From IMG/VR virus record IMGVR_UViG_2657244943_000010: a stretch of 34,596 nt of DNA. One strand, written 5' to 3'. Origin of the DNA: a virus (lineage: Duplodnaviria; Heunggongvirae; Uroviricota; Caudoviricetes). The position numbers and the translations under genes are program-made. Positions 5,707 to 34,596 of this stretch are shown here, piece after piece. Each line of letters starts with the position of its first letter. Within the stretch, counting starts at the first letter, position 1. A model generated the notes under the pieces. The model was not told where the DNA came from and searched no databases. It saw nothing but the letters and a program-made list of their open reading frames with translations.

Positions 5707-8529
5707 ATGACGGCAGAGTACATCAGGGACTGGCAACAACCGCGCCACGCAGTGGGGCGTGAAGGAACGGGGATCCCCGCTCCTGAATCCGCGCTTTCCT
5801 CCTGGCTGGATGCCTACCGGGTAGAGAACGAACGCCGCCAGGAAATGGCTGATGCGGCGTTCTCCGCCACGCCGCTGGGCAACCTGATTAATAAAAGCCT
5901 GGACGCACAGGAAAAACAGGACAAAACCATCACACTGGCAGGAGACGCCAGAAAACAGGCACGCGGCGCGGTGGATGAAGCCATGGCCTCGCTGCGCCTG
6001 CTGCCGTCCTATCTGCGCGATCCGCTTATTCGCCACCTCTCCTTCCTGCGCAAAAAACAGGAAGCCGATCGCCGGAAAGGCAAAAAGAGCTGGCAGGCGG
6101 AACGCTATGCACGCGGAACCCTGCGCAAAATATTCGAACGTCTGGATCGCACTGACGGACACTGGCTGACACCGGGTTATCGCTCCCTTGCCGGACGCGA
6201 ACGCCTGGACGATTTGCTTTACCTGCCGCAGCTCAACAAACACCAGATACAGACGCTGGCCACCATGACGGCGGCGATGTTCAGCAGCACCTTCGAAAAA
6301 CTCTGCGATGGCTTTGGCGCGACTGATGGCGAACTGACCATGGATGTAACGCTGAAGGCGTATCAGATGCTGGCCCGCATGGCGTTACACCTGCACGCCA
6401 TGCCTCCACATTATGACGCACTGACAACAGACAAAGACCGGAGGAACGAACCGGACACGGAGCTGCTGCCGGGCGCAATCCTCCGCCTGACCTGTGCGGA
6501 ATGGTGGAAACGCAAACTGTGGCTGTTACGTTGCGAGTGGAGAGAAGAACAACTCCGCGCCGCCTGTCTGGTTTCCAGAAAAACATCGCCCTATCTGAGC
6601 CAGGACGCGTTAAGCGAGTTTCGCGCACAGCGCGAGAAAACACGCGATTTTCTGAAAAGTTTCATGCTGGAAAACGAAGACGGGTTCACGATTGATCTCG
6701 AGACAGTGTATTACGCGGGAGTAAGTAACCCGGTTCACCGTAAGGCAGAAATGATGGCCACCATGAAGGGGCTGGAACTTCTGGCCGAAGCCCGTGGCGA
6801 CAGAGCGGTGTTTCTGACTGTCACCTGCCCGTCAAAATACCACGCAACAACGGAGAACGGTCATCCGAATCCCAGATGGAACGGGGCCACCATGCGCGAC
6901 TCCAGCGATTACCTGGTTAACACGTTTTTTGCGGCGGTCCGCAAGAAACTGAACCGCGACGGCCTGCGCTGGTATGGCATCCGCACGGTGGAGCCTCACC
7001 ATGACGGCACCGTGCACTGGCATATGATGGTCTTTGCTCATCCGGAAGAAATCGACACTATTGTGTCCCACACCCGCGATATTGCCATTCAGGAAGATCG
7101 TCACGAGCTGGGTGATGATATTACCCCACGCTTTAAGGCGGAGTACGTCGACGGCTCAAAAGGCACACCGACCAGCTACATCGCCACCTACATCGGGAAA
7201 AACCTGGACAGCCGTGCCGTGGATGGCATCGACCCGAAAACGGGCAAGCCACGCGTTGACCACGAAACCGGAAAATCAATGGCCGAGAGCGTGGAACGCG
7301 CCATCGGCTGGGCGCGCCTTCACCGGGTCCGCCAGTTCCAGTTCTTTGGCATCCCCTCCCGCCAGGTATGGCGTGAACTGCGCCGCCTTGCCAGCCAGAT
7401 GGCACGCAACCCGGAAGGCCCGCAACGGCTGAAGGATGACGCAATGGATGCGGTTCTTGCCGCCGCTGATGCCGGATGTTTTGCCACCTACATAGAGAAA
7501 CAGGGCGGCGTACTTGTTCCACGCAAAGACTACCTGATTCGCACCGCCTACGACCTCGCCGATGAGCTGAACGATTACGGCGAACAGAGCGTACAGATTT
7601 ACGGGATCTGGTCACCACTCATCGGGGAATCCTCCCGTGTGTGCACGCATCCGGATAACTGGAAGCTGGTAAGACGCAAACCGGAAGCGGAAGACAGCGC
7701 CCGCGAAAATGGTTTTGACCTTCAGGGCGGCCCTGCCGCCCCTTGGACTCGTGGCAATAACTGTCCCCGTGTACAGGAAACGGACAACAACGGGACAGAA
7801 CAGCCGGAAGAACGGCCAGCACCGTGGCCGCAGCTTCCTGACGGCGTTGATGTGGATGAATGGATGCGCTCACTGAAACGGCACGAACGCCGGGCGCTGA
7901 TGCGTTCGCTGCGTGACAAACAGGCAAAAAACAGCAGTGATGAAATGCAGAGCTGGACACAGAGCCGCAAACAGCAGCGGCCTTTGCCTGATAACCACGA
8001 ATTACTCGCTAAAGAATGGCGGGAGTCTGCCGAATCTCTCGGCCTGCATATCGGTGAACAGCAGATGCAGCACCTGTTACGGGGCGGCAGCCTGTACGTT
8101 GACGGCAGCATCATTGCACCGCAGGGATTTGAAATTGTACGCAAACCGGATACCCGCCCGGACAGCCGAATCACGCAGCTCTGGCAGCGCCTGAGCCGTA
8201 ATCACGGCGTAAGCAGCACGGAGATCCGCCATAACCCGGTCGCCGGCTATCTGGAGCAGCTGGGGGCATCAGACCCCGAAGCCGCCGCACGCCTGGCATC
8301 CACACTTCAGCAGGACCAGAACACCATGAAAACCCCCGTTACCGTGCTTTCTGACATGCTGCGCGCCATCCGTGACGCAGAGCACGCACAGAGAATCAGT
8401 GAAACCACTGAACGCGCCCACCACAAAGCAGACCTGCTGCGGGGTAGCCTGACCAGTGGAAACAAAAAACAGACAGAAACGGGATTCACAAATCCCATAA
8501 ATGAGCAAAAAACGCACCATAAAACATGA
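5707..8529 (+). CDS. A: Rolling-circle replication initiation endonuclease, P2 gpA family
   Basis: 940 aa; HUH-type motif HDGTVHWHMMVF and tyrosine pair SYIATYIGKNLD as in P2 A; long low-complexity C-terminal extension. Confidence 0.85.
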   Translation: MTAEYIRDWQQPRHAVGREGTGIPAPESALSSWLDAYRVENERRQEMADAAFSATPLGNLINKSLDAQEKQDKTITLAGDARKQARGAVDEAMASLRLLPSYLRDPLIRHLSFLRKKQEADRRKGKKSWQAERYARGTLRKIFERLDRTDGHWLTPGYRSLAGRERLDDLLYLPQLNKHQIQTLATMTAAMFSSTFEKLCDGFGATDGELTMDVTLKAYQMLARMALHLHAMPPHYDALTTDKDRRNEPDTELLPGAILRLTCAEWWKRKLWLLRCEWREEQLRAACLVSRKTSPYLSQDALSEFRAQREKTRDFLKSFMLENEDGFTIDLETVYYAGVSNPVHRKAEMMATMKGLELLAEARGDRAVFLTVTCPSKYHATTENGHPNPRWNGATMRDSSDYLVNTFFAAVRKKLNRDGLRWYGIRTVEPHHDGTVHWHMMVFAHPEEIDTIVSHTRDIAIQEDRHELGDDITPRFKAEYVDGSKGTPTSYIATYIGKNLDSRAVDGIDPKTGKPRVDHETGKSMAESVERAIGWARLHRVRQFQFFGIPSRQVWRELRRLASQMARNPEGPQRLKDDAMDAVLAAADAGCFATYIEKQGGVLVPRKDYLIRTAYDLADELNDYGEQSVQIYGIWSPLIGESSRVCTHPDNWKLVRRKPEAEDSARENGFDLQGGPAAPWTRGNNCPRVQETDNNGTEQPEERPAPWPQLPDGVDVDEWMRSLKRHERRALMRSLRDKQAKNSSDEMQSWTQSRKQQRPLPDNHELLAKEWRESAESLGLHIGEQQMQHLLRGGSLYVDGSIIAPQGFEIVRKPDTRPDSRITQLWQRLSRNHGVSSTEIRHNPVAGYLEQLGASDPEAAARLASTLQQDQNTMKTPVTVLSDMLRAIRDAEHAQRISETTERAHHKADLLRGSLTSGNKKQTETGFTNPINEQKTHHKT

Positions 8530-8605: not shown

Positions 8606-9565
8606 ATGAAAATTTGTATCGACGACGGCTCCACCAACATCAAGCTGGCATGGACTGAGAACGGCGAACGCCGCAACGCCATCAGCCCGAACAGTTTCAA
8701 GTCGGAATGGTCTGCGCCGTTCGGTGGCACGCAGCCCGCGAACTACATGCTTGATGGCGTGCGCTATGGTTTTGATCCGGTCAGCGATCGCTTTGTCCAG
8801 ACGACCGACACGCAATACCAGTACAGCGATGTGAATGTCATTGCCATTCATCATGCGCTGGTCAAATCAGGCATCACGCCACAGGAGGTGGATGTAGTTG
8901 TCACCCTACCACTGAGCGAGTATTTCGACACAAACGCACAGCCGGACATGGTCAACATCAACCGCAAAAAAGCGAACGTTATGCGCCCGGTGGAGTACCA
9001 GAACGGCGAGGCATTCACTATCCGTAACGTGCGGGTTATGCCTGAATCCATTCCGGCTGGCTTTAAAGCACTGGCTGACATGAGTCCGTTTGAATCCCTG
9101 CTGATTGTGGATTTGGGCGGAACCACGCTGGATGTGGCAAAGGTTCAGGGGCAACTGGCAGGTATCAGCCAGGTGTTTTGCGATCCACACGTAGGCGTTT
9201 CTCTGATGGCCGATGCCGTGCTGTCGGTGATGGCCACCAACGGTATGCGCACCAGTCACCACATCGCCAATACCATTATCGAACATCGCCACGATGAAGC
9301 CTGGCTGCGCCAGCACATCCACAATGACGCGCATTATGCCAGCCTGATGGCAGTTATTCGTGAAAAGGAGGAAACACTGAAACAACGCGTGATCCGTGCG
9401 CTGGCGGGTTTTTCGGGTTACGGGCGGGTGATGGTTGTAGGTGGAGGAGCGGAGATTGTGGCACCCGCTATCCGCGAAGCCTGCGGAGTTAATGCGACTT
9501 TCATCGCGGACGGGGTGCCACAGTTTGCTCTGGTTAATGGGCTGTACGCAATGGACAAGGAGTAA
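8606..9565 (+). CDS. parM: ParM-type actin-like partition ATPase
   Basis: 319 aa, AAGGAAAA RBS; N-terminus ICIDDGSTNIKLAW ... ISPNSFKSEW ... YQYSDVNVIAIHHALVKSGI closely parallels plasmid R1 ParM/StbA as I recall it. Confidence 0.85.
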   Translation: MKICIDDGSTNIKLAWTENGERRNAISPNSFKSEWSAPFGGTQPANYMLDGVRYGFDPVSDRFVQTTDTQYQYSDVNVIAIHHALVKSGITPQEVDVVVTLPLSEYFDTNAQPDMVNINRKKANVMRPVEYQNGEAFTIRNVRVMPESIPAGFKALADMSPFESLLIVDLGGTTLDVAKVQGQLAGISQVFCDPHVGVSLMADAVLSVMATNGMRTSHHIANTIIEHRHDEAWLRQHIHNDAHYASLMAVIREKEETLKQRVIRALAGFSGYGRVMVVGGGAEIVAPAIREACGVNATFIADGVPQFALVNGLYAMDKE

Positions 9566-9569
9566 ATCA

Positions 9570-9884
9570 ATGACGACACCAACCAGACGGATAAGTTTCT
9601 ATCTGAAGCCCGCCGTCGTCAAGAGCGAACGGGAGGCGTGCAGTTACCTCGACAGCCTGCCAGCCTCCGAACGCAGCCGCGCACAACGCGCGGCTTTTCT
9701 GGCTGGACTGGCTCTTATAAAACGCACCCCCGCGTTGGCGTATTCGCTGGCAGAATGGTCAGAAGACGAAATACGGATGCCACCGCTACCAGTACAGCCT
9801 GAAAAACCGGCGCAACCAGCAGCAGACAGCGCCCCCCATATGCAGCAGGTGAAAAAGAATATTCAGGCGTTTTTCCCGAAGTGA
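9570..9884 (+). CDS. parR: ParR-type centromere-binding adaptor
   Basis: 104 aa from ATG 9570 (AGGAG upstream); RRISFYLKPAVV ... YLDSLPASERSRAQRAAFLAGLAL parallels R1 ParR; 4 nt after parM stop. Confidence 0.75.
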   Translation: MTTPTRRISFYLKPAVVKSEREACSYLDSLPASERSRAQRAAFLAGLALIKRTPALAYSLAEWSEDEIRMPPLPVQPEKPAQPAADSAPHMQQVKKNIQAFFPK

Positions 9885-10948: not shown

Positions 10949-11983
10949 TCACTCCATGGGTTCATCAAAATCAAGAATAAATTTCACCTCTCCCAGTCGT
11001 CTGATATCCGGGTCGCTGTTGATCCCCTCCATAATCAGGCGGCGCATCGGGATAACCTCATCCCTGTAATATGCCTCGCGGGATTTCAGTGGGTCACCAA
11101 GCCCGGCCGTATTTGCGGGAATGATGCCGGCAAGTCCGGGTGGAAAACGGTGCGCAACGAGCTGATCCTGGGCACTGATGGTTTTTATATTCAGGAACTC
11201 ATCTTTTGTACCTGAATCCCCGATAGGGATCACCTTAACACCTTCTTTGTCTCCGCCCGGTATATTGATAAACATGGATTTAAAATTGCCCGCCCCTTTT
11301 GACGCCTCTATCTTTTTACGGAATTCCGCCTCGAGCTCGGGATCCATGTCCGGGTCAGTGGAATACAGGATATAACCAAGATGTGCGCCGTTCTTGTAAT
11401 ACTTGCGGCGAAAGCGGGTGGCATCCACATTCAGCATGGCGGATTCCATCCCGTGAATATAATCCGGGACACCGTAAACCTGCTGTTGCGGGTCATAAAT
11501 GGCCACGAACACCACTTCGCCTGGCAGGTAAACGAGATCTTCCAGTGCCGCCTGCACAATCACCGTGCCACCCTCGTTGTTACGCCGCAGGTACAGAGAA
11601 GGTAACGTATGCAGGCGCACCACCCGACCGAAGCCATTGCGCACTTTAAGCAACCCCATATCCCCGAATATCAGCAGATTGGTTACTGCTGCCGCCATGG
11701 CGGCGTGTGTCATACCACCACCACCCCGAAAACCCTGCATGATCATATTGACGCGCGCACGCAATACCGCGCCGTGATACGGTGCGATATTGGACAACAT
11801 GGCGAGATCCATGCGCTCAATGGGCGGCGTGTACCAGCCGTTATAGCCATCCCAGAGCGAGCCGTAATAACAGCCCCATGCAGCGACCGGTTCCGGGTCA
11901 CCAAATTCAATAAACGTCATTTTGCTGGCTGTTTTTTTTGCCACGCCATCGTGTAACACGGGGTATTTTTTCTTTTTACTCAT
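10949..11983 (-). CDS. Q: Portal protein, P2 gpQ family
   Basis: 344 aa, same length and leftward orientation as P2 Q; overlaps terminase stop. Confidence 0.9.
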   Translation of the reverse strand: MSKKKKYPVLHDGVAKKTASKMTFIEFGDPEPVAAWGCYYGSLWDGYNGWYTPPIERMDLAMLSNIAPYHGAVLRARVNMIMQGFRGGGGMTHAAMAAAVTNLLIFGDMGLLKVRNGFGRVVRLHTLPSLYLRRNNEGGTVIVQAALEDLVYLPGEVVFVAIYDPQQQVYGVPDYIHGMESAMLNVDATRFRRKYYKNGAHLGYILYSTDPDMDPELEAEFRKKIEASKGAGNFKSMFINIPGGDKEGVKVIPIGDSGTKDEFLNIKTISAQDQLVAHRFPPGLAGIIPANTAGLGDPLKSREAYYRDEVIPMRRLIMEGINSDPDIRRLGEVKFILDFDEPME

Positions 11984-13763
11984 CTGACAGGATCCATGTT
12001 GATTTGCGCTTGTGCTTATAGTTCAGGGGTTCATTACTTGCGGCATGAGCTATGGCAAAGAAGATGTCAGCGTGCCCGGTTTCTTCGCTACGTTCGGCGG
12101 TGAAAGTGACTTTATTGCCGCTGTTGGTGGATTCCTGACGAATGGCCAGGAACGATGCCGGAATATCCGTAGCTTCCTCATCCCACTCAATACGGTTGGC
12201 GTAAATCAGATCCATCATCTTCATCACCAGGCGGTTTTTGGATTCCACGCTGTAATGAATGGCCACTGTTTCACGGCGGGCAAATCCCTGAACCAGCTCA
12301 AAGACACCGTAGCCAAGACCGGTGACGTCAATGCCGATAAACGTCATGTTATAGCGTGCCTTAATGCTGCGGATACGCTCTGCCATAAACTGGAATGACA
12401 TGCTGCGCCAGTGGTGTTTTTCCAGCACGCGGAATCGTTCTGCCGCAACCAGCGGCGGTGCCAGCACAACAAATGTGGCGTTATCGCCGGAGCGCGCAGG
12501 GTCAAAGCCGCCCCAAACCTCACGGTTACCAAATGGCATGGGCTCTTCCGGATGAAAATCCTCCCACGTACTGACATCAACACCACAACGCACAAGATCA
12601 TCGAATTTAAAGACGCTCTCTTTGTCATCCACAAACACACACATAAACAGCATATTGAACGCTGTTTCGTTGTATCGCTCGCGCAGCTCGTTGATGTCAG
12701 CAAGGTTAAAGCCGCCGGCAATGGCATCTTCCAGCGTAACCACATAGCGCCACTGACCATCCGGACATTCACGCCCACCATCGCGCAGCTCATCAAAGGA
12801 CGGAAACTCAACCCCTTTTCGTTTTGGATCGCCTTTGCGCCATTCATCGCCAGACCAGAACGGGTAACCCTGGTGTGTTTTGGATGACGGCGTGGAGAAA
12901 TAGGTAATGCGCCAGTGTTTATGGGTGGCCATCCCTGACGCCACTTCATTGAGACGGCGAAAACCGGGGATCCACAGGTATTCATCAATATACAGGTGGC
13001 CGCTGTTTGACTGCGCTGTGTTACTGTTGGTCGCCAGAAAATACAGTTCAGCCAGATTACTTAACTTAACCGGATTGCCCTTAATGGGAATGCCAAACTC
13101 TGTTTGTGCAATTTTTACAATATAAGTACGGAACACTTCGGCCTGACGTTTTGATGCCGATAAAAATATCTGTGTGTCGCCGGTTAATACCGCATCTTCA
13201 AATGCCTCAAACGCGAAGTAATACGTCGCCCCAATCTGGCGGGATTTAAGCAGGTTGCGTACACGGCGGAATTTGTTTTCACGCAGGCGCAACTGATAAG
13301 CAAACAGTTTCTTCGTAAACGGCTCAAAACTTTCAGCAGTCAGTCCGGAAACGTCATTAGCTTTACGGGGGCGCTCTTTCTTACCTGCACCTTTTTCTCC
13401 GCGTTCTTCTTTTCCATAACGGCCAGGCTGGGGAATGTCCACTCCCATTCGCGCAATCTCAGCCATTCGTTCCGTGTGCTTGTTTCTGACCGACATCAGT
13501 TTGACGTGATGACCAATCAGGCGATCAAGCTCATCGTGTTCTTCCTGAGTCTTATGGTCGCGTTCCGCCAGCACAGCGAGACGCCGGGCGATAACATCTT
13601 CCACGCCTTCAGTATTAAGCTGTGTGTACCACTCAAACTTTGTCGCCCAGTAATAAACAATTCGCGGGCTGTTCAGTCCGAGCTTCTTTTGTATTTCTTT
13701 TGGTGTGTGCCTTTTCAGATAGAGCGATTTTGCAGCAGCAATCACCTCATCAGAATACGCCAT
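11976..13763 (-). CDS. P: Terminase large (ATPase) subunit, P2 gpP family
   Basis: 595 aa; N-terminus MAYSDEVIAAAKSLYLKRHTPKEIQKKLG and ATPase region LKSRQIGATYYFAFEAFEDAVLTGD typical of P2 P. Confidence 0.9.
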   Translation of the reverse strand: MAYSDEVIAAAKSLYLKRHTPKEIQKKLGLNSPRIVYYWATKFEWYTQLNTEGVEDVIARRLAVLAERDHKTQEEHDELDRLIGHHVKLMSVRNKHTERMAEIARMGVDIPQPGRYGKEERGEKGAGKKERPRKANDVSGLTAESFEPFTKKLFAYQLRLRENKFRRVRNLLKSRQIGATYYFAFEAFEDAVLTGDTQIFLSASKRQAEVFRTYIVKIAQTEFGIPIKGNPVKLSNLAELYFLATNSNTAQSNSGHLYIDEYLWIPGFRRLNEVASGMATHKHWRITYFSTPSSKTHQGYPFWSGDEWRKGDPKRKGVEFPSFDELRDGGRECPDGQWRYVVTLEDAIAGGFNLADINELRERYNETAFNMLFMCVFVDDKESVFKFDDLVRCGVDVSTWEDFHPEEPMPFGNREVWGGFDPARSGDNATFVVLAPPLVAAERFRVLEKHHWRSMSFQFMAERIRSIKARYNMTFIGIDVTGLGYGVFELVQGFARRETVAIHYSVESKNRLVMKMMDLIYANRIEWDEEATDIPASFLAIRQESTNSGNKVTFTAERSEETGHADIFFAIAHAASNEPLNYKHKRKSTWILSDE

Positions 13764-15893: not shown

Positions 15894-16604
15894 ATGCCAA
15901 CGCCAATGCAGCGACAACGTGCCCGACAGATGGATGAGCGCCGTGCGGCGCTCATGACCAGAACGGACGGGAGCGCCATCAGCACAGAGAGTCAGCACAT
16001 TAAGCTGCTGGCACTGGATAACGACATCAGACAACTGCACAACATGGAGCTGCTGTCTGACAAGCTGGAATTCAAACGGAACACGCTGCTGCCCCGCTGG
16101 CTGCCACACGCACAGGCTTATCTGGAGGGGGAACGCGTCTATCAGAATCCCATTCTGGTGTACTGCATCATCTGGCTGTTCGATACCGGGCAGTTTGAGA
16201 TGGCGCTGCGGTGGGCTGACATTGCCATTGAGCAGGGGCAAAAGACGCCGGAGAACTTCAAAAGCGAGCTGCCAACGTTTGTGGCCCATTTCATTCTTGA
16301 ATGGGCAGAAACCGAAGCTGAACGCGGGAACAGTATCGCGCCATATTTTCAGCAGGTGTTTGAAAGAATCCGCGACAAATGGCGCGTGAATGAACGCCTT
16401 GCTGCCCGCTACTGGCGCTTTGCAGGCGTCCTGCTGCTGCGCGGCGATGACGGTAAACCGCTGGCCAGTGCAATTAACGATCCGGAGAGACTGCAACAGG
16501 CCGACCAGTGTCTGGAACAGGCTGCCTGGCTGCATCCAAAAATTCAGGTGAAAACCCTGCGCCAGCGCATTGCCGCAAGACTGCGCGCGTTGCAGGGCAC
16601 GTAA
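15894..16604 (+). CDS. M: Terminase small/endonuclease subunit, P2 gpM family
   Basis: 236 aa in the conserved O-N-M-L position. Confidence 0.75.
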   Translation: MPTPMQRQRARQMDERRAALMTRTDGSAISTESQHIKLLALDNDIRQLHNMELLSDKLEFKRNTLLPRWLPHAQAYLEGERVYQNPILVYCIIWLFDTGQFEMALRWADIAIEQGQKTPENFKSELPTFVAHFILEWAETEAERGNSIAPYFQQVFERIRDKWRVNERLAARYWRFAGVLLLRGDDGKPLASAINDPERLQQADQCLEQAAWLHPKIQVKTLRQRIAARLRALQGT

Positions 16605-27809: not shown

Positions 27810-29849
27810 ATGAGCGCACTGTTAACAAAAGCATTTGAAAAGTGGGTTGCTGAATGCACTGCCAGTAATTTACCTGCACGCCCTGACGCTATTATTTTTG
27901 CCCTGATGGAGCGGGAACCAACGCGCGAAGACAATACCGTTCCGGAAGACAGAATCACATACGCTGTGAATGAACTGACCTGTGGCCAGTTAAGCCAGGA
28001 CACTATTGTGTGCAGCGCCGTTGTTCCTGATGACTGTGTTTTCAGTTATGACTGGATTTGTCTCATCCATCAGGCCAGTGGAACGTTATGCGGCGTAATA
28101 AAAACTCCCGTCAGACAGAAAACGACAGGTGAGTCACTCGTCCGCAATTTTACAATCACCTACAGAGGCATTGCTCAGTCCGCGCAAATCAGCGTCCCTC
28201 CCCAGAGCTGGCAGGTGGATATCACTCCGGAGCTGAAAACAGCACTGAAAACTCCTAATCACCTGTCAGAAATTGCAGCAGAAGGCGAAGAGGCGCAACA
28301 GGAATCCCGCGATAATCTGGGACTGAAAGTTTCAGCCATAATGGAGCCACAGGGTGATATTCGAGACCGGACTGAAGGTTGTCTGGCGATACCGGGCGCA
28401 TTTGGTTTTGGTCATATTTTTATTCCGGGTGATGCTGTCAGGTTTAACAACGAGGCTGATTTGCTGGCATGGGTAAGATGTGTGGAACCCGGAGAATATT
28501 ATGTGGAGGGGGGAAGCGGAGTACTTCCCGGCATCGCCTTCCGGGGGATGATAAGTATCCGCTGGCTAGAAGCAGAACGCTCCACACCTCTGCCACCACA
28601 TACAGCAAAGGCCATTATTTTCTATGGCATTAACGGTGATATTTATTACAACCGTTACTGGAGTACAGGAAATGGATTGCTGACTGGCTGGGAAAACCTG
28701 AAAGTCAACGAGGCTTCACTCAGGGCGCTGATTGAAACCCGCGCGCCGCTGAACAGCCCGGCGTTCACCGGTACGCCAACCACACCAACCCCACCGGATG
28801 ATGCGGTCGGGCTGGAGATGGCGAACGCGGCGTTTGTCCGCAAACTGCTCGCTGCACTGGTTGGCTCATCTCCGGAAGCCCTTGACACACTGAATGAGCT
28901 GGCAGCGGCGCTGGGCAGTGACCCGAATTTTGCAACGACGGTCACTAACGCGCTTGCAGGCAAACAGCCACTTAGTGATGTTTTAACCGCCATCAGCAGG
29001 TTAAACGCTCAGGCAGATAATCTTCTGTACTTTGATTCGGACGGGAACGCATCGCTGACACGGTTGACGCCAGAAGCCCGTTCACTGCTGGCACAGGCCA
29101 CACCGGAAGATATGCGCAGAGTGCTTGAGCTGGAAAGGTCAGACACTGTGGTGCCACAGAATAATATTTATGACCGCAGCGAAGGCGTGGTGGCCATTCC
29201 GGGGACGCTGGGATATGGAGGATATTACCGACATGAAGACAAAGTCATTTTCAGGGGAGAAAACGGCCCTGCTGATTTTATTTCCTGGGTATCCACTACA
29301 CCACCGGGCCGGTATGCGGTAGGAGACGGTACTTCATATAGCGCGCCTCAGATTATTGACAAGGAAAATCGTCTGGAAGGGATTGTTGAAATTATTATTC
29401 CGGATACAGCCTCCTCGTCTTCGCAATCGCGTGCAGACAAGCTCATTATTTTCATGAGTAAGAAGGGAGAAATGTTTATCAACTGGCTGAAATGGACCAG
29501 TGCCGGAGCCGGTCTGGCTGGCTGGGGAAATCTCAGCGCGAAGGGATTACGCTCTGCTGACTTTTGGGGAAACCCGGGGATTGACGGAGTCACACTGGCA
29601 GCAATATCTGTCGCTGACCTTGCCTCACATAAGCGTGGGGACAGGATATCAGGCGAAAAGTTACGGCATGTATCGCTTATGTTTGAGAACAATGGTAACC
29701 CGTGCGCAGCGGCATCGGTTTACAACGTATCGATGATGTACGGGTTATTGCCGGGGTCCTATTTTATTCTGAATGGCTCCAGTCAGAGTCTGAACTGTGG
29801 GAATAAAGCCAATGCCTGGTGGATTTGCCTGGTGATGAGGGCAGAATAA
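27810..29849 (+). CDS. Tail fibre protein 2 (paralogous N-terminal domain, different distal part)
   Basis: 679 aa; N-terminus shares PARPD, Y(N/D)WI, SG(V/T)LC, TP..QK and WQ(I/V)DI blocks with fibre 1; distal region has collagen-like TGTPTTPTPP and NELAAALG motifs. Confidence 0.7.
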   Translation: MSALLTKAFEKWVAECTASNLPARPDAIIFALMEREPTREDNTVPEDRITYAVNELTCGQLSQDTIVCSAVVPDDCVFSYDWICLIHQASGTLCGVIKTPVRQKTTGESLVRNFTITYRGIAQSAQISVPPQSWQVDITPELKTALKTPNHLSEIAAEGEEAQQESRDNLGLKVSAIMEPQGDIRDRTEGCLAIPGAFGFGHIFIPGDAVRFNNEADLLAWVRCVEPGEYYVEGGSGVLPGIAFRGMISIRWLEAERSTPLPPHTAKAIIFYGINGDIYYNRYWSTGNGLLTGWENLKVNEASLRALIETRAPLNSPAFTGTPTTPTPPDDAVGLEMANAAFVRKLLAALVGSSPEALDTLNELAAALGSDPNFATTVTNALAGKQPLSDVLTAISRLNAQADNLLYFDSDGNASLTRLTPEARSLLAQATPEDMRRVLELERSDTVVPQNNIYDRSEGVVAIPGTLGYGGYYRHEDKVIFRGENGPADFISWVSTTPPGRYAVGDGTSYSAPQIIDKENRLEGIVEIIIPDTASSSSQSRADKLIIFMSKKGEMFINWLKWTSAGAGLAGWGNLSAKGLRSADFWGNPGIDGVTLAAISVADLASHKRGDRISGEKLRHVSLMFENNGNPCAAASVYNVSMMYGLLPGSYFILNGSSQSLNCGNKANAWWICLVMRAE

Positions 29850-31131: not shown

Positions 31132-31678
31132 CGGGGAAGCCATTCTGCTGCGTAACATCACCGTCAGCGCCACCATGCAACTACCGGACAAAGATATGTC
31201 CGGACAGTCAACCAGCACCACGAGCGCCCAGCAGGGAAACAAGGCTAAAGAGCTGCGCGTGTCGGGGGTTATTGATTTTAACGATGAAGCTATTCTGACC
31301 CGTATTTTTCAGCTTGCGGAGGCAACAGAAAGCAACGGTGCTAAAAAAACATATCGCATTGCTAACGCTACCGCGAAGGCAATCAATATGCGACAGGGGG
31401 TGTTTTCTGGTGGCATTGATGCCACGGAACAACAGGGAAAAATGCACTGGCAGATCACCTTTACTCTCAGGGAAAAATTAAGCGTGCCAGAGAAAGCATC
31501 CGCACGCAGCGGTTCGCAGAAAACCATCGCCAGACAGCAGACCCAGAATGGCAGCGAACAGGTACCAGACAAAGGCATGAATACGCAAAGTTCGTTCTGG
31601 AAAAAAATCAATGATGCCGTTGGCTCTGGTCTGGATGCTGTTGGCATCGGGAGCGTGAAAGAGGAAGGGAAAACATGA
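31103..31678 (+). CDS. Hypothetical tail-associated protein (191 aa)
   Basis: AAGGGAAG RBS; overlaps the upstream gene by 29 nt and is ATGA-coupled to the hub/spike gene. Confidence 0.5.
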   Translation: MTQMIVLALDGEAILLRNITVSATMQLPDKDMSGQSTSTTSAQQGNKAKELRVSGVIDFNDEAILTRIFQLAEATESNGAKKTYRIANATAKAINMRQGVFSGGIDATEQQGKMHWQITFTLREKLSVPEKASARSGSQKTIARQQTQNGSEQVPDKGMNTQSSFWKKINDAVGSGLDAVGIGSVKEEGKT

Positions 31679-33372
31679 AATTGATACAACGCTGCATGAT
31701 TAATGGCGAACGGGTGGAAATTGCCGATATAAGCCTTGTTCTTACCCTGAATGCTGCCGGTCGTGGCTTCATTTCTGTTAACAATCTGTCACCCGAACAC
31801 AGCCTTGCCGGCGCAATGGTACAAATTGATCTCGGCCGTGACGGTGAAGCATGGCGCTATTTCTCCGGCTACATTGAGCGCGATCAACCTGCTGAAAATG
31901 GCTCACGTCGCCTTTTTATTCGTGAAGCGGCTGCTGTGCTGGATTTTGATTTCCCTTGCTCCATGCAACACCCGACGTTGCGGGGGGTACTCGATAATCT
32001 GGGGCGACAAAGCGGTATCGTTTTTATCACTCCGGATGCGGATTATGCCAGTATACCAACTCCCTACATCACCCACAGCGGCAGCGGAGCACAACTGCTC
32101 AGCCAACTGGGGCGAGCATTCAGTATCAGCGATTACGTCTGGCACCCTATGCCGGACGGTTCTGTATTTGTGGGAAGCGCAGCTGATTCACGATTTGCCA
32201 GTATTACAATGCCGGATATTCCGCAACAGTACACACTCGGGCAAAGCGGCGGAAACAGCATCGACATCATGTTTATGGAAACTGTGCGACCGGGCGTGAA
32301 CCTACCGGCCGGGCGCATTACCCGTGTAGCCCTCAACAACGAGAAAATGACCCTGACATGGGAGCGCCTTACCGCCACGGGTACCCCTGTTTCCAAATCA
32401 CCATTACGCAGACAAATGGAAACACAGTTCCCGGAACTGGCCAGCGGTACGCTACATACCCGGCTGGCGCGCGTCATTGCGCCAACGGAGCCCACCACCC
32501 TGGGCGACGTGGCCGACAGTTTCCGCCCACGCTACGCCGTCGATGTGCAGTTGCTTGATGAGAACGGCAACGATAAAAGCGACACGCCCGTTTACCCGGC
32601 AGTACCGCTCCCCGTCCCCATGGCTGGCAGTGAGGCGGGATGTTTTGCCTACCCACCAGCAGGCACCATCGTGGAAATATCCAACATTGAAGGACGTCCG
32701 GACAAACCCGTTATCAGGCAAATCTTACCCGCTGGCCATAACCTGCCTGATGTAAAGCCAGGCGAACAGCTGCAGCAACAGCGCGCAGAAGTGTTTCAGC
32801 GCGTCACGACTGACGGAAGCTGGCACAGAGAAACCGATCAGCAAATCAGGGAGCATTCAGCCAGACGAACCATTAACAGCGATCAGGAAGAACGCACAAC
32901 AACAACCAGAACAACAACAGTACAGGCAAACGACATAACCAGCGTTCTGGGAACCAGCAAGCTGATGACAGGCCAGACAGAACACATTACTACTGGTCAT
33001 TATGCGATCGCAGCCGGTGAGCATATCCAGATGGTAGCGCAGGATTTGCTGACTAAACTCAAAGGGGCGACATCCACGATTGAGCGCGACCTTACTGAAA
33101 ACGTGGGAGGCCGCAGAACATGCCGGGCGGACGGTGGTCTGGAGTTTACAGCCCCGACAGTATTTATTGGTCGCGGTGGCTCACGGGAAAAATCCGGACT
33201 TAATCTGCTGACGTTGTTGATTGATATTCTGGATCTGGTTCAGTTGCTGGCCACACACACTGCAAACCACACCCACAGCAACACCGGCGCACCAACAAAC
33301 AGCAGCGAACTTGCCGCAGACGCCAAACAGGCTACGAGCCTGCGCGAAAAATACGGTGACATTATCGCCTGA
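31675..33372 (+). CDS. Putative baseplate hub/spike protein (gpD-like N-terminus, spike-like C-terminus)
   Basis: 565 aa; last gene of the tail cluster, as D is in P2; C-terminal THTANHTHSNTG contains His-x-His motifs like those at phage spike tips. Confidence 0.5.
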   Translation: MKLIQRCMINGERVEIADISLVLTLNAAGRGFISVNNLSPEHSLAGAMVQIDLGRDGEAWRYFSGYIERDQPAENGSRRLFIREAAAVLDFDFPCSMQHPTLRGVLDNLGRQSGIVFITPDADYASIPTPYITHSGSGAQLLSQLGRAFSISDYVWHPMPDGSVFVGSAADSRFASITMPDIPQQYTLGQSGGNSIDIMFMETVRPGVNLPAGRITRVALNNEKMTLTWERLTATGTPVSKSPLRRQMETQFPELASGTLHTRLARVIAPTEPTTLGDVADSFRPRYAVDVQLLDENGNDKSDTPVYPAVPLPVPMAGSEAGCFAYPPAGTIVEISNIEGRPDKPVIRQILPAGHNLPDVKPGEQLQQQRAEVFQRVTTDGSWHRETDQQIREHSARRTINSDQEERTTTTRTTTVQANDITSVLGTSKLMTGQTEHITTGHYAIAAGEHIQMVAQDLLTKLKGATSTIERDLTENVGGRRTCRADGGLEFTAPTVFIGRGGSREKSGLNLLTLLIDILDLVQLLATHTANHTHSNTGAPTNSSELAADAKQATSLREKYGDIIA

Positions 33373-33407
33373 TCACCGGGCATACCCCCCATAAACGCCC
33401 ATCACGC

Positions 33408-33434
33408 AACGCACGGCTCCGGTCGTGCGTTTTC
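33408..33434 (+). terminator. Candidate intrinsic terminator after the tail operon
   Basis: AACGCACG (33408-33415) pairs with CGTGCGTT (33424-33431), followed by TTTT. Confidence 0.45.
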
Positions 33435-33503
33435 ATACCTGCCACCTGATTAATGCGTTCTGCGTGCCATTCTGGCGCTGTATGCGCACACCGCGTAAAC
33501 GGT

Positions 33504-33530
33504 GTGACGTAAAGCGTGAGGTGACGTAAA
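33504..33530. repeat. Direct repeats GTGACGTAAA x2 (plus a third CGTAAA nearby)
   Basis: GTGACGTAAA at 33504-33513 and 33521-33530; CGTAAA also at 33495-33500. Confidence 0.6.
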
Positions 33531-33636
33531 CCGCGCTACCCCCTCCAACCCGCGGGTTTCGTGTCGAAACAGTTTTTCAGTTTTCTGCCGTGCAAAAATG
33601 ACCGCCAGCCCGCGCAGCAACTGAGGGAAAAGCGAA

Positions 33637-33895
33637 GATCTGAAATTTCACGCTTTGAAATTTTTTGCAGTTTTCAAAGTGGTTTTTACGATCGCACAAA
33701 TGGCCGGAGCAATAAAACTGCATGATATTAAAAGAGTTTTCATACTTTACGCGAGACAAAAAAACGATCACGAAAGGATCGCATCAAACAACCATCAAAC
33801 AAAGAAGGCAGACACGGCGCGGCCTGCACAAAATTAAGCTCCAAAATAAAACTGAAAAAAGGATCGCAACAAGAAGAAAAGCGCGTAAAACGATC
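33637..33895. promoter_or_regulatory. AT-rich region with six GATC sites and five copies of an AAAA(C/G)GATC(G/A)C motif
   Basis: GATC at 33637, 33690, 33766, 33777, 33862, 33892; motif copies carry A-runs 5' of GATCGC/GATCAC. Confidence 0.45.
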
Positions 33896-33969
33896 GCTGC
33901 TGATGTGGCGTTTCTTTATACAAGCTGCTATTTGCGATATGCTGAACACATCAACCTGTGGAGTGCATT

Positions 33970-34596
33970 ATGAAACGAAAATCAAAGTCTGCTGCCATTG
34001 CTGCTATTACTACAGCTCTGACAGCATCACTGGCTCCGGTGCCAGCTAAAAGCACGATACTACCAACAACAGTTATTGAATCCGCGACACACGCTAGAGT
34101 GGTTTCAATGCTTACATTTGAGCATCATGATGGTCAGGTGTTTCTGCCTCTCGAAGAAGCTATTGAATATATCAACGGGCTGAATGACAACATGCGTGCC
34201 GCGCTCAATGCAGTCATTGAAGAACGACAGAACAGAGGCAAGGGAGCACTGTTTACTGACAAAACCGCAAAAATCATAAAAATATGCGAAGAGTCAATTA
34301 AGCAGCACACCCGTGTTAAAGAGGCTGTCAAAATTGTAATGGATCCGGATAACCTGGCAAAAATGTATCCGGATAGCCTGGAGCAAAGAATCGCCTATCG
34401 CAATAAACTGGTTCGTTTTGGTCGGGCAATTGCGCAGGGGGAGTTTATCGCTCGTGATGCCATCAACACCATCAAACGAAGCACCGCACCAGACAAAACA
34501 ACCAGCCTGGGCAATACGCTGTCTGACGGAAATGTGAAAGCAATGATTATTGCCGAGCATAAAAACATGGGACTCCCGGCACCGGAGTTTTCCTGA
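33970..34596 (+). CDS. Hypothetical protein (208 aa), possibly exported
   Basis: ATG 33970 with GGAG 6 nt upstream (track start 33958 is a GTG); basic N-terminus then Ala/Thr-rich segment; low-GC gene; stop TGA at window end. Confidence 0.5.
   Translation: MKRKSKSAAIAAITTALTASLAPVPAKSTILPTTVIESATHARVVSMLTFEHHDGQVFLPLEEAIEYINGLNDNMRAALNAVIEERQNRGKGALFTDKTAKIIKICEESIKQHTRVKEAVKIVMDPDNLAKMYPDSLEQRIAYRNKLVRFGRAIAQGEFIARDAINTIKRSTAPDKTTSLGNTLSDGNVKAMIIAEHKNMGLPAPEFS

Follow-up and report, generated by a model that had tools for sequence, protein, structure and literature searches.

A conserved non-coding region with a putative cos site and a GATC array borders a cargo hotspot in an HP1-like prophage of Escherichia coli

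Positions 33373–34596 of a viral DNA record (IMG/VR IMGVR_UViG_2657244943_000010, the 34,596 nucleotides of which are referred to here as the window) begin directly after the last late gene of a prophage. They hold a non-coding region (33373–33865) with a terminator, a putative cohesive-end site (cos) and an array of GATC sites, and then a gene for a 208-amino-acid protein, with whose stop codon the window exactly ends. The prophage belongs to the HP1-like branch of the P2 family (Peduoviridae) and is integrated in Escherichia coli between pheL and raiA: E. coli chromosomes match the region at 99.3% identity, the window's first gene is the integrase gene (int), and the flanks of a near-identical prophage in strain EC42405 are pheL/int and raiA. 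The lineage was found in ~50 of 5,426 complete genomes. Beyond the window lie, in order, a YafO-family toxin gene, a HEC-04 ATPase gene, the remnant of a DNA methyltransferase gene and raiA. The 20-bp att core (ACAAAAAACGCGCCCGAAGG) has one copy beside int/pheL and a second beside raiA in the near-identical prophage; this second copy, at attR, is ~2.9 kb past the end of the 208-aa gene, so the stretch does not lie at the edge of the prophage. An initial annotation, made from the DNA letters alone, had taken it for the right edge; what ends there is the window only, and the prophage goes on.

The last late gene (31675–33372, + strand) encodes a baseplate protein homologous to HP1 orf35 (match to PHROG 2258 'baseplate protein', E = 2e-232), with 42–47% identity (tblastn) to orf35 of HP1/HP2 and to its counterparts in Cronobacter phage ESSI-2 and Salmonella phage SW5; the gene preceding it (before 31675) matches PF25759 (HP1_ORF34). 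DNA searches of 33373–34596 (near mode) and 33440–33970 (distant mode) against 50,697 phage records gave no match. The link to known phages was therefore made through the orf35 protein instead of DNA, and the orf35 gene served as the anchor for comparing other phages. The initial annotation had likened this end of the prophage to that of P2, with its Z/fun cargo. However, Z/fun of P2 sits between genes G and FI, and the tail end found here is HP1-like.

On the evidence of these comparisons, 33373–33865 is non-coding and belongs to the deeply conserved backbone of HP1-like Peduoviridae; it holds the terminator and the putative cos. The terminator that had been proposed for the tail operon is indeed present as a rho-independent hairpin (33408–33431, + strand; −17 kcal/mol, z = −4.7) followed by TTTTCAT, and is kept in relatives and in a satellite element described below. 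It is followed by three CGTAAA repeats on the + strand (33494, 33508 and 33525; overall 33494–33530), of which the first (33494–99) precedes the two direct repeats GTGACGTAAA that the initial annotation had correctly located at 33504–13 and 33521–30. At the counterpart position HP1 has five ACG(T/G)AAA-type repeats (by eye) and an Enterobacter locus (L018) has three copies of GACG(A/G)AA; the CGTAAA repeats are also retained in the satellite. We therefore read the GTGACGTAAA copies as probable cos-flank repeats, not integrase arm sites.

The putative cosN itself, CTACCCCCTCCAACCCGC, spans 33536–33553. The linear record of ESSI-2 carries a 15-nt repeat, CTACACCGCACCCGC, at both of its ends, 198 bp after its orf35 homologue, and the record of SW5 breaks within sequence homologous to CTACACCGCACCCGC; the putative cosN is thus homologous to the record termini of both sequenced relatives. 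The ESSI-2 cos region has a single clear match in the window, at 33510–33615 (score 65 versus ~30–40 elsewhere). The position is equivalent to that of HP1 cos, after orf35 and before attP/int: the putative cosN lies 164 bp past the orf35 stop codon, versus 192 bp in HP1 (annotated cosR). A third line of evidence is that the same site occurs in a satellite without a terminase of its own. The assignment of cos to ~33536–33553, which rests on homology, position and this sharing, is putative. By analogy with the biology of P2, HP1 and lambda, the terminase (small subunit gene at 15894–16604, large subunit gene at 11976–13763) would assemble on the cos flanks and cut at cos, generating the left end of the virion DNA.

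The satellite is an 11-kb island at a tRNA-Arg gene that gave a weaker match to 33455–33674 (in one genome, locus L057, NZ_CP041429.1 1.586–1.598 Mb). It encodes an integrase, a toprim primase, an Icd-like protein, an Ogr/Delta protein, hok and its own P2-family capsid protein, and no terminase, portal or tail genes are annotated in its representatives (L056/L057 and L058). It carries the same terminator, the CGTAAA repeats, an identical cosN and the TTTCAG repeats considered below, and these cos elements are likewise retained in a variant that is 91% identical (L058). The island is present in nine complete E. coli genomes. Because five of the six listed genomes match in at least two places, and in four of those five a phage-type region is listed separately too, the phage lineage and the satellite probably coexist in several genomes. 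P2 and its satellite P4 similarly share only cos, each with a defence hotspot next to it (PMC9122126).

To the right of the putative cosN, a flank of ~310 bp (33556–33865) carries repeats of the TTTCAG type, an inverted pair of GC-rich boxes and, at fixed positions, five GATC sites. Adjoining cos is the element TTTTTCAGTTTT (33573–33584, + strand), which is invariant in the alignment; an TTTTTTCAG element is also found roughly 20–30 bp from the cohesive end in P2, HP1 and ESSI-2 (by eye). Further TTTCAG-type copies lie at 33640–51 and 33662–75 and, inverted, at 33714–23 and 33848–59, so that the flank holds four to five. The GC-rich boxes CCAGCCCGCGC (33605–33615) and GCGCGGCCTG (33817–33826) form the left and right arms, respectively, of an inverted repeat (I11), the right arm being conserved in the alignment. 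The TTTTTCAGTTTT element, the TTTCAG-type copies and the GC-rich pair are conserved in all relatives examined; ESSI-2, SW5 and the Enterobacter locus (L018) likewise have TTTCAG copies and equivalent pairs of GC boxes. The two arms of each inverted repeat follow one consensus, with no compensatory changes, a pattern that would suit protein-binding sites better than an RNA helix.

The backbone GATC array extends over 33637–33865, with sites at 33637 (GATC1), 33690 (GATC2), 33766 (GATC3), 33777 (GATC4) and 33862 (GATC5). A sixth GATC (33892–33895) is borne by the downstream cassette, 20 bp upstream of its −35 element, and the successive spacings are 53, 76, 11, 85 and 30 bp. The excess over chance that the initial annotation had estimated was upheld by an exact count: six GATC fall within 259 bp, whereas the density of the window as a whole (100 sites, 2.89 per kb) leads to an expectation of ~0.75 per 260 bp, and this is the sole place in the window with six in 260 bp. 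Shuffles of the local sequence that preserved composition gave P(≥6) = 0.0005, and a Poisson estimate for 400 bp gave 0.0013. The accompanying claim of five AAAA(C/G)GATC(G/A)C copies was overstated. The shorter motif AAA[CG]GATC[GA]C occurs four times in the window, every time in the array region, while a fifth site (33688) fits only the relaxed form A[CG]GATC[GA]C and the sixth reads AGATCT. Across whole genomes, P2 has 0.74 GATC per kb, versus 2.9 in the window and 2.2–4.2 in HP1, ESSI-2 and SW5.

Measured from the orf35 stop codon, the five backbone sites have offsets of ~265, 318, 394, 405 and 490, which are kept in 25 IMG/VR and four E. coli loci, including one lineage in which the orf35 protein has diverged to 61% identity; relatives with hok downstream have two extra sites, at offsets of ~507 and ~520. 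In an alignment of 27 distinct but related sequences, 17 of 20 GATC positions are invariant, versus 39% of the positions of the region (permutation p = 1.3e-4). In the lineage of locus L055 the spacing of 52/76/11 is kept and the flanking bases have changed, to GGATCC and CGATCA; in loci L048–50 the flanks have changed as well, L048 having TGATCA. Because tetramer and spacing are kept while the flanks change, the conserved unit is the Dam site itself and its position, not a longer motif, and the alignments show that the array is under selection for its Dam sites as such. Moreover, the distances of the five GATC from cos are the same in three diverged phage lineages, and both satellite variants lack any GATC in the equivalent ~800–1,100 bp. 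Since the array is fixed relative to cos in diverged lineages and absent from the satellite that shares this cos, it belongs, by these alignments, to the phage backbone and not to the cargo gene, and a satellite can share cos without having the sites.

Immediately after GATC5 the conservation ends. Similarity to the hok-type relatives stops at 33865; in these, which make up most of the relatives, hok comes next, often followed by a Com-family gene and an N6_N4 methyltransferase gene. Similarity of the cassette to that of a P2-like prophage beside serS (L004) starts near 33870, and in L055 the cassette is attached at this same position to that lineage's own array. Two Enterobacter prophages likewise have the cassette downstream of orf35 and cos. 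These boundaries show, at the level of sequence similarity, that a variable cargo hotspot begins at 33866, analogous to the cos-adjacent hotspots of P2 and P4; its part within the window (33866–34596, + strand) is that of the cassette with the 208-aa and YafO-family genes, and the view of the 208-aa gene as accessory cargo of a P2-family prophage is thereby borne out.

Other contents of the hotspot deserve mention. The HEC-04 ATPase gene that follows the cassette was recognized by its PADLOC model (E = 6e-204). Just upstream of it, in the near-identical locus L001 (~7900–7965), an 8-bp unit, GCGATGAA, is repeated seven times in tandem, and this tract could be slippage-prone or regulatory. In the Enterobacter hotspot (L018, offsets 600–1000 past the orf35 stop) there are dense iteron-like repeats, CATCACA / GTGACGG, and some of this repeat sequence is found again in the E. 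coli prophage, ahead of the HEC-04 gene (L001 7750–7850). In two relatives (L023 8154–9102 and L045 5914–6856) a gene for a Mu Com-like zinc-ribbon protein overlaps the start of an N6_N4 DNA methyltransferase gene beside attR; in the prophage of the window (L001 9766–10065) only the 3′ end of the methyltransferase gene survives.

The cassette itself is a compact operon. Its putative sigma-70 promoter (33915–33943, + strand) consists of TTTATA, a 17-bp spacer and TATGCT, within a block, TTCTTTATAC...TTTGCGnTATnCT, that is conserved upstream of homologues in other genera; a stringent sigma-70 consensus scan of 33300–34100 found no site, and the promoter was recognized by conservation only. A ribosome-binding site (GGAG, 33960–63) precedes the 208-aa gene (33970–34596, + strand), which is low in GC, as initially described (46% versus 52% for the window). 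The start of the toxin gene overlaps the last base of the 208-aa stop codon. The toxin matches PF13957 (E = 1.1e-27), which places it in the YafO family; against the NCBIfam YafO equivalog it scores 42.7 bits, far under the 153-bit cut-off. In 19 of 20 loci the gene next downstream of the 208-aa gene encodes a YafO-family toxin, the usual junction being a TAATG or TGATG overlap, and the promoter and a shared terminator bracket only these two genes. The sequence organization thus shows a self-contained two-gene operon of predicted promoter, 208-aa gene, overlapping YafO-family toxin gene and terminator.

Taken together, we consider it probable (roughly 70%) that the stretch combines a conserved non-coding cos region with a GATC array and, next to it, a swappable cargo hotspot that here holds the 208-aa/YafO operon. 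Some observations weigh against this reading or parts of it. The terminal repeat of ESSI-2 could be a product of assembly or of record convention, and alignment of the P2 and HP1 cos cores with the window gave nothing above background, these sequences being too diverged. Near cos, three to four GATC are present in ESSI-2 and SW5 (P ~0.07–0.09) and only two in L018, and neither HP1 nor P2 shows GATC enrichment there. The lack of GATC in the satellite, where ~1.5 would be expected, is not significant by itself and is suggestive only.

As to what the array does, we tentatively suggest, with low confidence, that it is a methylation-state sensor on the cos flank, through which events at cos would be gated in a manner dependent on Dam and SeqA. 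SeqA or another reader of GATC would occupy the hemimethylated, freshly replicated DNA of the flank, and, for as long as methylation was incomplete, the bound reader would restrict the access of terminase or local transcription. The logic would be that of P1 pac, with the array acting as a modulator and not as a recognition element. Two satellite variants share the same cos without any GATC, which counts against such a gate; because they use this cos without GATC, methylation of these sites can be no positive requirement for recognition. Scans of the region for DnaA boxes and the IHF consensus gave nothing above background.

The 208-aa protein has no match in Pfam, NCBIfam, PHROGs or the PDB sequences. 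Its AlphaFold2 model is helical (mean predicted local distance difference test score of 75), and fold searches with this model returned generic helical hairpins only; these searches linked it neither to the YafN (Phd/YefM) family nor to any DNA-binding fold known from antitoxins. The family is tiny: clustering at 90% identity gives 39 clusters, and a set of 1.8 billion proteins contains 32 representatives. RefSeq/PGAP often names its members (for example in L002 and L055; P0003–P0032) 'iron-sulfur cluster assembly scaffold protein SufA', a name supported by no model and probably a propagated misannotation. The basic N-terminus and Ala/Thr-rich segment noted initially are present, and the suspicion of a signal peptide has been strengthened: codons 1–26 (33970–34047) are Sec-signal-like, with a basic n-region, an uncharged hydrophobic stretch variable in sequence and a near-invariant LAPVPA|xS, and this n-h-c pattern is kept across the family. 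Among the 53 proteins scanned, 50 have a lysine or arginine before the h-region and 44 are free of acidic residues there; the best 10-residue Kyte-Doolittle score has a median of 2.26; and the c-region is VPA|x at residues 24–26, with V at −3 and A at −1. The linker after LAPVPA|xS is poorly conserved and of low confidence in the model, and the rest of the protein is alpha-helical and of no known family. By its sequence pattern, then, the protein is shown to carry the features of a conserved Sec-type signal peptide.

From gene order and coupling we infer that the 208-aa protein is the toxin's neutralising partner. This role sits uneasily with the signal peptide, the conservation of which implies export away from a cytoplasmic toxin; the pattern argues that the mature protein, at least, is not cytoplasmic, and no DNA-binding or known antitoxin domain was found in the 208-aa protein. 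A possible alternative, to which we give appreciable weight without thinking it probable, is that the protein is no antitoxin at all but a periplasmic superinfection-exclusion or envelope factor, the YafO-like protein being controlled by RNA or by intrinsic latency. The Sec-type n-h-c segment, conserved in more than 45 homologues, and the missing antitoxin-like domain are as this alternative predicts, as is the location in a prophage hotspot, where exclusion genes are common (PMC9122126). It fits poorly with the strict adjacency and overlapping stop and start codons in 19 of 20 loci, drawn from many genera, or with an operon that has no room for another gene; in addition, the LAPVPA c-region is far more conserved than is usual for signal peptides, which hints at a second role.

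In a more novel reading, the 208-aa protein would be an 'export-labile' antitoxin. The cytoplasmic precursor would neutralise the YafO-type toxin, and Sec export, in place of proteolysis, would continuously drain the precursor, so that whenever synthesis stopped, for example because an infecting phage had shut off its host, the toxin would be released and the infection aborted; LAPVPA would then double as signal-peptide c-region and toxin contact. This reading is speculative, and we regard it as doubtful, as we do a second and independent one, in which the GATC array would serve as a Dam/SeqA timer for the use of cos and the cognate satellite would have shed it.

Among other explanations of the array, the idea that its motifs are iteron-like sites for a sequence-specific protein (the small terminase subunit, ParR or another phage regulator), with GATC no more than a portion of the bound sequence, is unlikely. 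It draws on the four sites that share AAA[CG]GATC[GA]C, a motif found nowhere else in the window, on the interleaving of GATC with TTTCAG repeats beside cos, and on the presence in this phage of ParM and ParR genes with no obvious parC adjoining them. The conservation pattern runs the other way, however: what is conserved is the GATC tetramer and its spacing and not the flanking bases, which vary by lineage, and the irregular intervals between sites and the satellite with the same cos and none of these sites argue likewise. A ParR centromere in particular was rejected, as related arrays occur in phages without annotated ParMR (ESSI-2 and SW5) and the satellite has none of the sites. The ParM-like and ParR-like (PF10784) genes themselves are located at 8606–9884, inside an integrated P2-family prophage; just 76 bp lie upstream of parM, with no obvious parC repeats there.

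A Dam- or SeqA-dependent regulatory region of the 208-aa gene, that is, an epigenetic switch on its promoter, as the initial annotation had proposed, is quite improbable. The array does lie directly upstream of this gene, with the last GATC 20 bp before the putative −35 element, and in L055 the promoter starts ~35 bp past GATC5. Several of the GATC also follow A-rich tracts, and A4 tracts 5′ of GATC have been reported to slow Dam (PMC4417163). Nevertheless, the array is kept site for site in relatives with hok downstream, while eighteen loci with homologues of the 208-aa gene in other genera have no array; the promoter block of the gene is conserved without conserved GATC, and the same cassette in the P2-like prophage L004 has only one GATC upstream.

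Still less can be said for a phase-variation switch of the pap, agn43, gtr or opvAB type, in which Lrp or OxyR would compete with Dam at paired GATC and give rise to ON and OFF lineages for the hotspot or a leftward promoter; we consider this very unlikely. GATC pairs 11 bp apart, pairs or sites separated by 85–97 bp and A-rich tracts before many sites are reminiscent of such switches, and one relative has TTTAAACGATC, which resembles the pap box TAAAAGATCGTYTAAAT on the opposite strand. However, the best match to an OxyR half-site (ATAGnTnnnAnCTAT) overlapping GATC is 6/10, with none at ≥7 (0.7 expected by chance), and the Lrp consensus is not enriched. The pap arrangement, with two TAAAAGATCGTYTAAAT boxes in Lrp sites ~102 bp apart before a fimbrial-type promoter, was not found, there being no pap-type box in the window and a partial resemblance in the one relative only. 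In gtr the paired sites are separated by 13 bp and lie no farther than 110 bp from the start of transcription, whereas the sigma-70 scan found no consensus promoter in the array, and the downstream genes differ among lineages.

That 33560–33865 encodes a structured non-coding RNA or a small protein is highly improbable. Nested inverted repeats (33573/33848, 33606/33817 and 33659/33714) and short open reading frames overlapping the region might suggest it, yet 33560–33870 folds no better than shuffles on either strand (z-scores of −0.2 and +0.4), Rfam at gathering thresholds has no match in the near-identical locus L001 or in a hok-type relative (L023), the arms of the inverted repeats hold to one consensus with no compensatory changes, and the region shows no 3-nt codon periodicity, its indels being 1–2 nt long. 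Finally, the initial suggestion that the GTGACGTAAA copies, direct repeats in a non-coding stretch near the window end, are integrase arm-type sites next to attR is refuted by the att mapping, since arm sites are sought within ~200 bp of an att core and the core here maps beside int/pheL and, 2.9 kb past the window end, beside raiA, while the repeats directly adjoin cos on its left side, and equivalents of them are found in HP1, L018 and the satellite.

Elsewhere in the prophage, the annotation of a near-identical RefSeq prophage (L003 31720–33231) splits the second tail-fibre gene into a truncated fibre and a pseudogene fragment called 'shikimate transporter', and the window has an intact open reading frame of 679 aa at that position (27810–29849); the two prophages differ by ~480 bp in length along their shared span.

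Compared with the cos of P2 and P4 (Ziermann & Calendar 1990; Rousset et al. 2022, PMC9122126), the region described here is alike in being a packaging signal common to phage and satellite, in its TTTTTTCAG element near the cohesive end and in the slot for variable cargo and defence genes right beside cos, here filled with an OLD/PARIS-like ATPase (HEC-04) and toxin modules. It differs in layout: in P2, cos lies between gene A and gene Q, whereas here, as in HP1, it comes after the last baseplate gene and before attP/int. Nor does P2 have GATC near cos, where this lineage has a conserved flank of ~310 bp with repeated motifs and the GATC array. With the genome end of HP1 (orf35, cos, attP, int) it shares gene order, the distance from orf35 to cos (192 versus ~164 bp), ACG(T/G)AAA repeats left of cos and TTTTTTCAG right of cos; HP1, by contrast, has no cargo between cos and attP and only two GATC there, and the sequences cannot be aligned. 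A putative cos with its adjacent cargo and defence hotspot is thus placed in an HP1-like E. coli prophage lineage, extending the hotspot rule of P2 and P4 to a different genome layout, and the exact boundary at 33865/33866 can be used for mining cargo.

The pac site of P1 contains seven TGATCA/G hexamers, and its cleavage is controlled by Dam methylation (PMC10028697). Here, too, a cluster of Dam sites stands beside the putative terminase cut site, and phages of this group carry DNA methyltransferases of their own. In P1, however, packaging is headful and GATC is part of a repeated recognition hexamer within 161 bp; the present phage is a cos phage, in which five to seven conserved GATC lie ~85–310 bp off cos and not around it, have variable flanks and are absent from the satellites with the same cos, so that they do not form part of a terminase-recognised repeat. 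Dam sites that are fixed relative to cos in the phage and missing in its satellite nonetheless offer a clean, testable case for methylation-dependent control at cos, and could bear on competition between helper and satellite. We know of no methylation-dependent control of packaging other than that of P1 pac. The array also resembles the Dam-dependent switches (pap/Lrp and agn43/gtr/opvAB/OxyR) and the clusters bound by SeqA (oriC and P1 oriR) in having several GATC in AT-rich non-coding DNA, with intervals of 11 and 30 bp (one and three helical turns) between paired sites and A-rich tracts before many sites, but here there is no OxyR, Lrp, DnaA or IHF consensus, no fixed downstream promoter and no origin features.

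As in YafN-YafO of E. coli, the operon pairs a downstream toxin of the YafO family (PF13957) with an upstream, translationally coupled partner. YafN, however, is of the Phd/YefM type and roughly 97 aa long, whereas the partner here has 208 aa, no family or fold match and a conserved signal peptide. It defines a small unannotated family, mislabelled 'SufA' in RefSeq, and its signal peptide is out of keeping with a classical type II antitoxin; the two proteins pair by a novel mechanism, or else the toxin is under a control that is yet to be found. Hotspots adjacent to cos, YafO toxins and Dam-controlled packaging are all of kinds already known. What is new, to our knowledge and in the literature searched, is a cos phage with a conserved GATC array that its satellite does not have, and a YafO partner that bears a predicted signal peptide.

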